Origin: a virus
Lineage: Duplodnaviria; Heunggongvirae; Uroviricota; Caudoviricetes
Virus record (IMG/VR): IMGVR_UViG_3300050821_018098
Strand: one strand, 5' to 3'
Length of the DNA: 64,000 nucleotides
The notes under the pieces: model-generated
Told to the model about the DNA's origin: nothing
The model's database searches: none
Seen by the model: only the letters and a program-made list of their open reading frames with translations
Translations under genes and position numbers: made by a program
Shown here: positions 61,548 through 64,000 of the stretch, one piece after another
Layout of the letters: the number at the start of each line of letters is the position of its first letter
Position numbering within the stretch: position 1 is the stretch's first letter

Positions 61548-62318
61548 TTAGTCCTTTTTAAGGCTGTAATGTTTATCGTAGGCTTTATTCTTTAAATCAA
61601 AAATTTTATCAATATATCCATTTCTTCTAAGAAGTTTGAATACAAGATTTTCCACTGAGTATTCACCTTCAGCTCTAAGACCAGCCTGACGACCTTTCTT
61701 AATTTTATCCCAGATATCTTTTATTCGTTCTCTGAACTCAGCATAGTCTAAAGTATTAATATCAGCTTCAATATCATCTACTGTATCCATAATAGACTCA
61801 GCCTTGATTTTAATCAATACATCATCTATTTTAACATTTTTAGGGTGAGGTTTCAGTATCCATTTATCATTTAGTAAAGAATAAATACCTGTAGAATCAT
61901 GTTCAGCATTTATGTCTTGCATATACAATTCAACATCATAGTCCAAAATTTTAATATCATGAATAGTGTTAAATTCTCTTGTAACAGATAAAAGATAATT
62001 TTGTACAAGTGTTACATCAGAATTAACCTTAGAAAAATCTAATAAAATATGTAAGTCTATATCACTGTACTCAGACCATGTAAAGTTACAATTCGATCCA
62101 GTTAGTATTATATCAGTATACTCAATACCAAGTTCAAAAGTTTTATAAAAATCTTCTGCTATACCTAATAACTTCTCACGAATTATAGGTTTTATCTTAT
62201 CATCTGTTTCCCATATTAAAGGATTCAGTTCTTTTTTAACAGCAAAGCTCTTCAGAGGTTTTTCGATATCTTGTTCATGAGATCTTTCTGTTATAAAATC
62301 GATATAATTCTTAAGCAT
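61548..62318 (-). CDS. Pol-beta superfamily nucleotidyltransferase
   Basis: ILTGSNCNFTWSEYSDIDLH, DVELY; MLKNYIDFITE start. Confidence 0.85.
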   Translation of the reverse strand: MLKNYIDFITERSHEQDIEKPLKSFAVKKELNPLIWETDDKIKPIIREKLLGIAEDFYKTFELGIEYTDIILTGSNCNFTWSEYSDIDLHILLDFSKVNSDVTLVQNYLLSVTREFNTIHDIKILDYDVELYMQDINAEHDSTGIYSLLNDKWILKPHPKNVKIDDVLIKIKAESIMDTVDDIEADINTLDYAEFRERIKDIWDKIKKGRQAGLRAEGEYSVENLVFKLLRRNGYIDKIFDLKNKAYDKHYSLKKD

Positions 62319-63789: not shown

Positions 63790-63821
63790 TTTATAAGAAG
63801 ATTTCCTTGACTAACAACAAG

Positions 63822-64000
63822 GGGGGTTCTGACCTCCATTTGAGGTGCTTCAACATCGCTATAGATGCAGAGCCAAATGTTATAAAAGGTGTTGATGGCC
63901 TCCAATTGAGATGCTTCAACATCCATCGATTTAAAAGGATGTTCGCTTGGCAAGGTGTTTCTGGCCTCCAATTGAGATGCTTCAACATCTCGTGTACTTT
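63822..64000 (-). CRISPR. CRISPR array, 36-bp repeats and 30-bp spacers, type VI-B-like, truncated by the window edge
   Basis: Repeats at 63822-63857 (degenerate), 63888-63923 and 63954-63989 (GGTGTTTCTGGCCTCCAATTGAGATGCTTCAACATC); unique spacers at 63858-63887 and 63924-63953; third spacer begins at 63990. Confidence 0.88.

Follow-up and report, generated by a model that had tools for sequence, protein, structure and literature searches.

A CRISPR-type array in a large T4-like phage is anchored in the coding 3′ end of a conserved small gene

What is a short array of CRISPR-type repeats doing at the very end of a stretch of phage DNA, with no recognisable cas gene beside it? The question is raised by the last 179 bases (positions 63822-64000) of the sequence analysed here, a window of 64,000 nt which corresponds to positions 95711-159710 of a 166.9-kb viral record of IMG/VR (IMGVR_UViG_3300050821_018098, designated G000). 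The completeness of this record is 29% according to CheckV, i.e. it is a fragment, and its G+C content is 29%. It codes for a T4-type portal protein, a Gp23-type capsid protein, a tail sheath and a family-B DNA polymerase (PolB), as well as for fibres of the K1-lyase and pectate-lyase types. Judged by this gene content, the source is a large T4-like phage, and the portal, capsid, sheath and PolB genes bear out the original prediction that the array is phage-borne.

The region contains three direct repeats of 36 nt, spaced 66 nt from start to start, and the spacers between them are exactly 30 nt long and mutually unrelated. All of the elements are read on the minus strand. From left to right, they are (i) repeat 1 (63822-63857), a degenerate copy at the trailer end, with five mismatches to the consensus, (ii) spacer 1 (63858-63887; 30 nt), the oldest one, (iii) repeat 2 (63888-63923), with two mismatches (GAA to TCA when read on the minus strand), (iv) spacer 2 (63924-63953; 30 nt), (v) repeat 3 (63954-63989), a consensus copy, and (vi) the first 11 nt (63990-64000) of spacer 3, the newest. 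In the parent record the array (array A) extends 55 nt past the window end: spacer 3 runs to window-equivalent position 64019 (the numbering of the window being continued), is again 30 nt long in full, and is followed by a perfect repeat 4 (window-equivalent 64020-64055), where array A stops. The whole array thus comprises four repeats, with 5, 2, 0 and 0 mismatches to the consensus from left to right, and three spacers.

Since identical 36-mers are separated by unrelated 30-mers, array A cannot be attributed to chance. It is a genuine CRISPR-type array, as had been predicted; the three 36-bp repeats, the exact 30-bp spacers and the minus-strand repeat sequence given at that time were all correct, and the further units to be looked for to the right of the window amount to one. 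The degenerate copy at the left, which had also been noted, corresponds to the trailer end and places the active end to the right. A terminator-like hairpin (63805-63822, minus strand; 5-bp stem, 8-nt loop and T-rich tail) directly follows the repeat that comes last on the minus strand, and its position behind the degenerate copy supports minus-strand transcription ending just past array A. The plus-strand frame of spacer 1, once regarded as a hint of sense-mRNA targeting, is meaningless, as several frames are open across array A on both strands.

A fold had also been proposed for the repeat, consisting of a terminal stem with an inner CUC/GAG stem. It is geometrically possible, and across 15 family repeats 80% of the cells pair in this arrangement, compared with 46-57% when the partners are slid. 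The other expected signs of a conserved structure did not accompany it: covariation in the stem did not exceed that of shuffles, RNAalifold gave no consensus structure, and single-sequence folds of the repeat had z-scores near 0.

Beyond position 64000, where a leader and a cas gene had been anticipated, there is one more repeat and then a conserved small phage gene, with no cas locus. The minus-strand order, from right to left, is a channel gene, a small ORF, array A (with no stop codon between the two) and the terminator-like hairpin. The channel gene (window-equivalent 64273-65358, minus strand) encodes a 361-aa protein of the GluR0 type of ligand-gated potassium channels, with SBP_bac_3, Lig_chan, Lig_chan-Glu_bd and Ion_trans_2 domains. 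Its stop codon is overlapped by the ATG of the small ORF (TAATG). The small gene (window-equivalent 64019-64273, minus strand) has about 73 codons ahead of its repeat, and its last 12 codons are repeat 4. The apparent "leader" of array A is this conserved small gene, whose 3′ end constitutes the first repeat. The original prediction missed this central feature, i.e. the coding nature of the first repeat.

The arrangement is not confined to array A. A second array of G000 (array B; G000:C1:60647-60815, minus strand), located 35 kb before the window start and 99 kb from array A, contains three repeats and two spacers (31 and 30 nt). Its repeat differs from that of array A at 7 of 36 positions and reads, on the minus strand, GUUGUGGAAG...ACACC; a small minus-strand ORF, a paralogue of the array A ORF, runs into it. 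Queries with the small protein led to two further IMG/VR phages and to five Ga0210410 metagenome contigs that carry the module, and a pattern scan added four more distant phages. The gene-plus-array module occurs in several copies per genome and the arrays are short (1-5 repeats); L017, L030 and L043 are members with a single repeat. One array of phage G002 (L020:1441-1610, minus strand) is the reverse of the usual pattern, in that the diverged repeat (with mostly synonymous differences) is gene-proximal and the distal one is near the consensus. A repeat-like 36-mer (GGTG...CACC; L050:948-981 of IMGVR_UViG_3300048575_000513) encoding VEEHFKIKGITP opens a different ORF instead of closing a gene of the family. 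The IMG/VR contig of a related phage starts within a repeat (G001:C1:1-34), which means that its assembly broke at such an array; this T4-like record is called a "provirus" in IMG/VR, a doubtful label.

In all 15 gene copies (from seven phage records) the gene enters the repeat without a stop codon, and at least 11 of them have spacers behind it. The junction is conserved (...F-I-T-N-M | M-L-K-H-L-N-W-R-P-E-T-P). Among the first repeats, synonymous changes make up 34% of the codon differences in the frame of the gene, but 9% and 2% in the alternative frames. An exhaustive profile search recovered 512 cluster representatives of the small-gene family, and in 30 of the best 150 of these the motif is followed directly by a 22-residue period that gene callers had translated, the repeat peptides differing from lineage to lineage. 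As this period is found across distant representatives, the 66-nt array is a property of the gene family. Each array takes the last 36 nt of its own gene as its repeat.

The small protein (85 residues) is predicted to form an alpha/beta domain. Its AlphaFold (AF2) model (pLDDT 90.6, pTM 0.80) has an alpha-beta4-alpha-alpha topology, in which the last helix spans residues 63-78. The repeat encodes residues 74-85, and residues 74-78 are thus within the modelled helix. A fold search revealed no relative in the PDB, only uncharacterised phage proteins in AFDB and BFVD, and nothing informative in the ESM Atlas; none of the matches was to a nuclease- or integrase-like fold. A tblastn search of INPHARED with the small protein gave no match.

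The arrays are real and still changing. The spacers of the family (12 or more arrays) are unique and 29-31 nt in length, with one of 33 nt, and the repeats within an array are identical. Close relatives have the repeat in common, but not the spacers. The degenerate copy is gene-distal in arrays A, B, L018 and L029. Two phages that are 98-99% identical, G003 and G006, differ by one clean indel of 69 nt (G003:C1:46604-46840 vs G006:C1:31372-31540). This indel consists of one repeat and one spacer and sits precisely where gene and array meet, the flanks being the same in both phages. The junction indel, the unrelated spacers and the gene-distal degenerate copies argue for leader-proximal, ruler-type integration, and not for duplication followed by drift. 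The spacer of the extra unit is the one of 33 nt, and its repeat differs from the neighbouring one at several 3′ positions; this particular unit may therefore have come from recombination with another array instead of a new integration event.

Two of the spacers could be traced to the phages themselves. Spacer 2 of array B, the newer of its two, is identical (30/30) to G000:160706-160735 (window-equivalent 64996-65025), inside the channel gene beside array A and in the same sense as this gene; its protospacer is absent from the other IMG/VR phages. Spacer 2 of L018 is identical (30/30) to G002:19860-19889, inside a gene for an NTP_transf_2 nucleotidyltransferase and on the opposite strand, so that its predicted crRNA would be antisense to a phage gene; two newer spacers postdate it. 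These self-matching spacers are 2 of about 27 unique ones, while a fully self-derived set would predict about 6-7 at the estimated completeness of the records (15-39%). Self-sampling is therefore real but not exclusive. Together with the one-unit junction indel, the self-derived spacers show that some adaptation machinery inserts sequences into the DNA of the phage in the course of infection. The spacers of array A have no target in INPHARED, in IMG/VR (exact 26-mers), in the 166.9 kb of the phage itself or in six related records.

The protospacer of array B spacer 2 is preceded by TTTAGCCAA, i.e. TTTANNNNN, on its gene-facing side. This motif has been reported in the same orientation for type VI-B protospacers of Flavobacterium columnare (PMC8092290). 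Its null frequency is 1.5%, and one match in two protospacers corresponds to a p of about 0.03. Being present at one protospacer only, the flank is suggestive, and no more than that, of the acquisition motif of Flavobacterium II-C/VI-B systems.

The sampled DNA contains no cas genes that could be recognised. None of the large ORFs of G000 matched a cas family in PADLOC, Pfam or NCBIfam, which are the screens able to catch Cas13b (model NF038188 represents Cas13a), and cas13b, csx27 and csx28 were not found in the 7 kb beyond array A or among these ORFs. Nor was a Cas9-like ORF present among them. Six-frame scans revealed no Cas1 in about 600 kb from seven phage records, all of them fragments, and no Cas13a family member in the three closest records. 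The Cas4 family had no match in the five records searched, and the Pfam Cas4 model found nothing on G000 at E ≤ 0.1. A tracrRNA anti-repeat was sought as a reverse-complement copy of the repeat, and none was detected in G000 at up to 9 mismatches; such an RNA could be encoded by the host. To the right of the channel gene, there are genes for a 2H phosphoesterase, a 104-aa ORF and a 1084-aa protein. The last of these was considered as a candidate Cas13b and was ruled out, since it is a pectate-lyase-like beta-helix protein; it is probably a tail fibre or depolymerase.

To which CRISPR type might the repeat be related? Type VI-B arrays are defined by repeats of 36 nt that begin with GUUG, end with CAAC and contain a poly-U loop, by spacers of 30 nt and by the lack of Cas1/2 (Smargon et al., 10.1101/092577). 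The lengths in array A (36 and 30 nt) fit this type, as had been pointed out originally, and its repeat is identical to that of PspCas13b (10.1101/2023.03.10.532141) at 19 of 36 positions, with about 9 expected from shuffles (p = 0.0002). The ends of the repeat are GAUG...CACC in array A and GUUG...CACC in array B, each with one unpaired end position, unlike the GUUG/CAAC ends of VI-B, and runs of U in the central part reach 2 nt in array A and do not exceed 3 nt in its relatives. Among the distant members, L041 has GUUG...CAAC, and L042 and L045 have a compensated GGUG...CACC. The first ten bases of the array B repeat are the same as those of the PspCas13b repeat, and identity to the latter across the clade is 17-20/36. 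The reverse complement scores equally well, so the repeat by itself fixes neither type nor direction. It also has no match among the CRISPR-DR families of Rfam. We regard the array A repeat, from its sequence features, as VI-B-like and not as a member of VI-B; a type II-C-like reading is possible, and the earlier caveat that 36/30 spacing fits type II equally well still stands.

The loci resemble the VI-B arrays of Bacteroidota in several respects besides the 36-nt repeats and 30-nt spacers. They lack adaptation genes, tolerate self-derived spacers and have TTTANNNNN next to one protospacer, on the side that faces the leader; the array B repeat starts with GUUG and some relatives have GUUG...CAAC, with 17-20/36 identity to the Psp repeat, and the presumed leader-to-array transcription would yield an RNA of 5′ spacer-3′ repeat polarity. 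They differ from them in that the array is carried by a phage, that no cas13b, csx27 or csx28 was found, that array A has GAUG...CACC without a poly-U loop, and that the "leader" is protein-coding with a translated first repeat. No bacterial array with this repeat was found.

Any explanation has to account for the observed anatomy, polarity and turnover of the units, for the partial self-origin of the spacers and for the lack of cas genes in the sampled DNA. The reading which we tentatively prefer, with somewhat less than even confidence, is that of a gene-anchored array which is loaded by the adaptation machinery of the host and which most likely diverts the host CRISPR machinery. According to this model, array A would form the tail of a minus-strand operon (channel gene, small gene, array and hairpin, in this order), in which the first repeat encodes the end of the C-terminal helix of the small protein. 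An integrase of the Cas1-Cas2 type with a 36/30 ruler would insert new repeat-spacer units at the gene-array junction. The integrase would most likely be that of the host, as the phage apparently does not encode one, and the best model for it is a II-C-like adaptation module that serves cas1/2-less VI-B arrays in trans. Such a case is known from F. columnare, whose VI-B array lacks cas1/2 and is filled in trans by a II-C adaptation module (Hoikkala et al. 2021, PMC8092290). The repeat embedded in the gene, along with its transcripts, could then serve as a mimic that absorbs spacer integration and perhaps also the effector.

The proposal is weakest as regards function; both the function and the host origin of the integrase are matters that we infer. 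The tolerance of perfectly self-matching spacers makes an effective crRNA-guided attack less likely. The array RNAs do not seem to drive effective interference, because spacer 2 of L018 persisted through two later acquisitions and the second self-match has the full motif. With two such matches in sister arrays, the role of a decoy, which had been listed among the options originally, fits better than that of a weapon. Self-targeting VI-B spacers are, however, common and tolerated in F. columnare (PMC8092290), so that tolerance alone does not show that the crRNAs are inert. A point that counts against diversion is that arrays A and B differ at 7 of the 36 repeat positions and yet both hold spacers. 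Two degenerate repeat cores had no match in 185,579 species-representative genomes, among which the host may be unsampled. Owing to this absence of the repeat core from about 185,000 cellular species representatives, mimicry of a host repeat is putative.

The proposed mimic is reminiscent of the Racrs and solitary repeat units of phages (Camara-Wilpert et al. 2023, PMC10651486). Those are likewise cas-less phage repeats, with several per genome, and our family also includes single-repeat members, although its mimicry is putative. Racrs are non-coding units behind a promoter, unlike the repeat described here, which is coding and usually followed by real spacers. The survey in which they were described found none of type VI (PMC10651486).

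Unlikely, but to be taken seriously, is the explanation that the arrays are a neutral by-product. The gene would be kept for the sake of its protein, its 3′ end would be accepted as a repeat by accident, and the arrays would be functionless scars of off-target integration. We detected no nucleotide constraint on the first repeat beyond coding (identical codons at conserved residues amount to 73% in the tail vs 80% in the body). The first repeat thus evolves like ordinary coding sequence, with no extra conservation at synonymous sites, which favours a by-product and argues against strong selection for repeat mimicry. The same explanation would accommodate the shortness of the arrays (1-5 repeats), their fast turnover and the existence of self-derived spacers. 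Moreover, Cas1-Cas2 has been reported to create arrays by integrating off target (Nivala et al. 2018, as outlined in PMC7054753), and in these neo-CRISPR loci, as far as that outline goes, a non-CRISPR seed repeat is duplicated on integration, as it would be here. The outlined case (PMC7054753) involved overproduction of Cas1-Cas2 in E. coli and rare chromosomal sites, whereas the present one is regular and conserved within a large phage gene family. It is this regularity that is hard to credit to accident, given that the repeat sequences are very different: the arrangement is present in 15 of 15 gene copies and in at least 30 of the 150 distant representatives, always with a 66-nt period, the repeats are exactly delimited, a genome has several copies, and the family-wide tail motif encodes VI-B-like ends.

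Rather improbable is a classical viral mini-array, in which a host effector (Cas13b or Cas9) is borrowed to exclude competitor phages or to silence host transcripts. Precedents exist in archaeal viruses, prophages and huge phages (PMC11656645; PMC7162821), the spacers are diverse and mostly without a self-match, and database coverage of this phage clade is thin. The mini-arrays of SPV1/SPV2 and of prophages (PMC11656645) are similarly short, cas-less, located on viral genomes and presumably in need of host Cas proteins. Their repeats are identical to those of the host and their spacers match related viruses (PMC11656645), in contrast to our arrays, which have no known host repeat, match no relative, hold two self-matches and are fused to a gene. 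No spacer matched another phage in INPHARED, in IMG/VR (searched with array A and spacer 2 of array B only) or in the six related records, and no host array with an identical repeat was found in the 185,579 species genomes. Two perfect self-matches are tolerated, one of them with the canonical motif, while the other is antisense to a gene of its phage and predates two acquisitions. The original suggestion of a weapon directed against competing phages or host mRNAs is thus unsupported, the spacers of array A having no target and two sister spacers matching their own phages.

We consider it quite unlikely that the phage encodes a CRISPR-Cas or CRISPR-like system of its own, with proteins that escape recognition or whose genes are in regions of the genome not covered by the record, and with the small protein perhaps as a component. 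Because all of the phage records are fragments, a phage-encoded cas module elsewhere in the genome is possible; the record of G000 is only 29% complete by CheckV and includes large ORFs of 949, 922 and 636 aa without a family assignment. The module is also tied to a phage gene family and not to one repeat sequence. Huge phages often have compact arrays distant from cas genes, as well as novel effectors (PMC7162821), and the compact cas-less arrays among them (Al-Shayeb et al. 2020, PMC7162821) resemble ours in belonging to large phages, in lacking acquisition and interference genes, and in the suggested use of host Cas proteins; for these arrays, PMC7162821 describes neither an anchoring in genes nor modules in multiple copies, nor spacers taken from the phage itself. 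Evidence to the contrary comes from the scans, which yielded no Cas1 in about 600 kb (seven records), no Cas4 family in five records and no cas gene among the large ORFs tested, and from the small protein, which has no nuclease- or integrase-like fold match.

A more far-reaching interpretation is equally improbable in our estimation. The small gene and its coding 3′ repeat would constitute a self-standing platform for spacer capture, a CRISPR-like memory co-evolving with a phage gene family in hundreds of lineages, that is served by an unrecognised integrase of phage or host. Such a platform might be related to the origin of cas1/2-less VI-B arrays, or might serve as an integration sink against adaptation.

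A protein-coding tandem repeat outside the CRISPR world, e.g. a precursor of multi-core peptides in which conserved recognition blocks of 12 aa alternate with variable cores of 10 aa, for which the 66-nt unit (22 codons) and the gene frame open through all four repeats of array A might speak, is effectively refuted, since spacers of 29-31 nt, unrelated to each other and in some cases copied from other genes, break the frame between repeats that are identical in DNA, and since the frame ends inside the spacers in L018 spacer 2, L019 spacer 1 and array B, leaving the later repeats untranslated.

Phage arrays without cas genes are already known. A translated seed repeat that belongs to a conserved multi-copy phage gene, of a family with hundreds of lineages, was not found described in the literature searched. 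In viruses, solitary repeat units have been recorded for all CRISPR types but type VI (PMC10651486), and the present family would fill this gap. Two questions become testable with it: the recruitment of integrases in trans by cas1/2-less arrays, and the blunting of adaptation by decoy sites of phages. If the mimic reading is true, the family would represent a new class of anti-CRISPR that acts at the adaptation step.

Several other genes of the record deserve mention. The GluR0-like channel is unusual cargo for a phage, and it is also the source of the self-matching spacer of array B. The 2H phosphoesterase (LigT-like; 300 aa; window-equivalent 65459-66361, plus strand) shows a weak, sub-threshold match to the anti-CBASS family Acb1 and might counter host defence as a nuclease directed at cyclic nucleotide signals. 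A 256-aa ORF in the window (61548-62318, minus strand) has a weak, sub-threshold match to NTP_transf_2 nucleotidyltransferases, the family to which the gene matched by the self-matching spacer of phage G002 also belongs. An intein, which carries a LAGLIDADG homing endonuclease domain, splits the large subunit of ribonucleotide reductase (G000:C1:77655-81161). Finally, G000 encodes an exoribonuclease of the RNase II/R family (G000:C1:45091-46926; RNB domain, E = 4e-98) and a ClpB-like double AAA+ ATPase (G000:C1:14395-16314).
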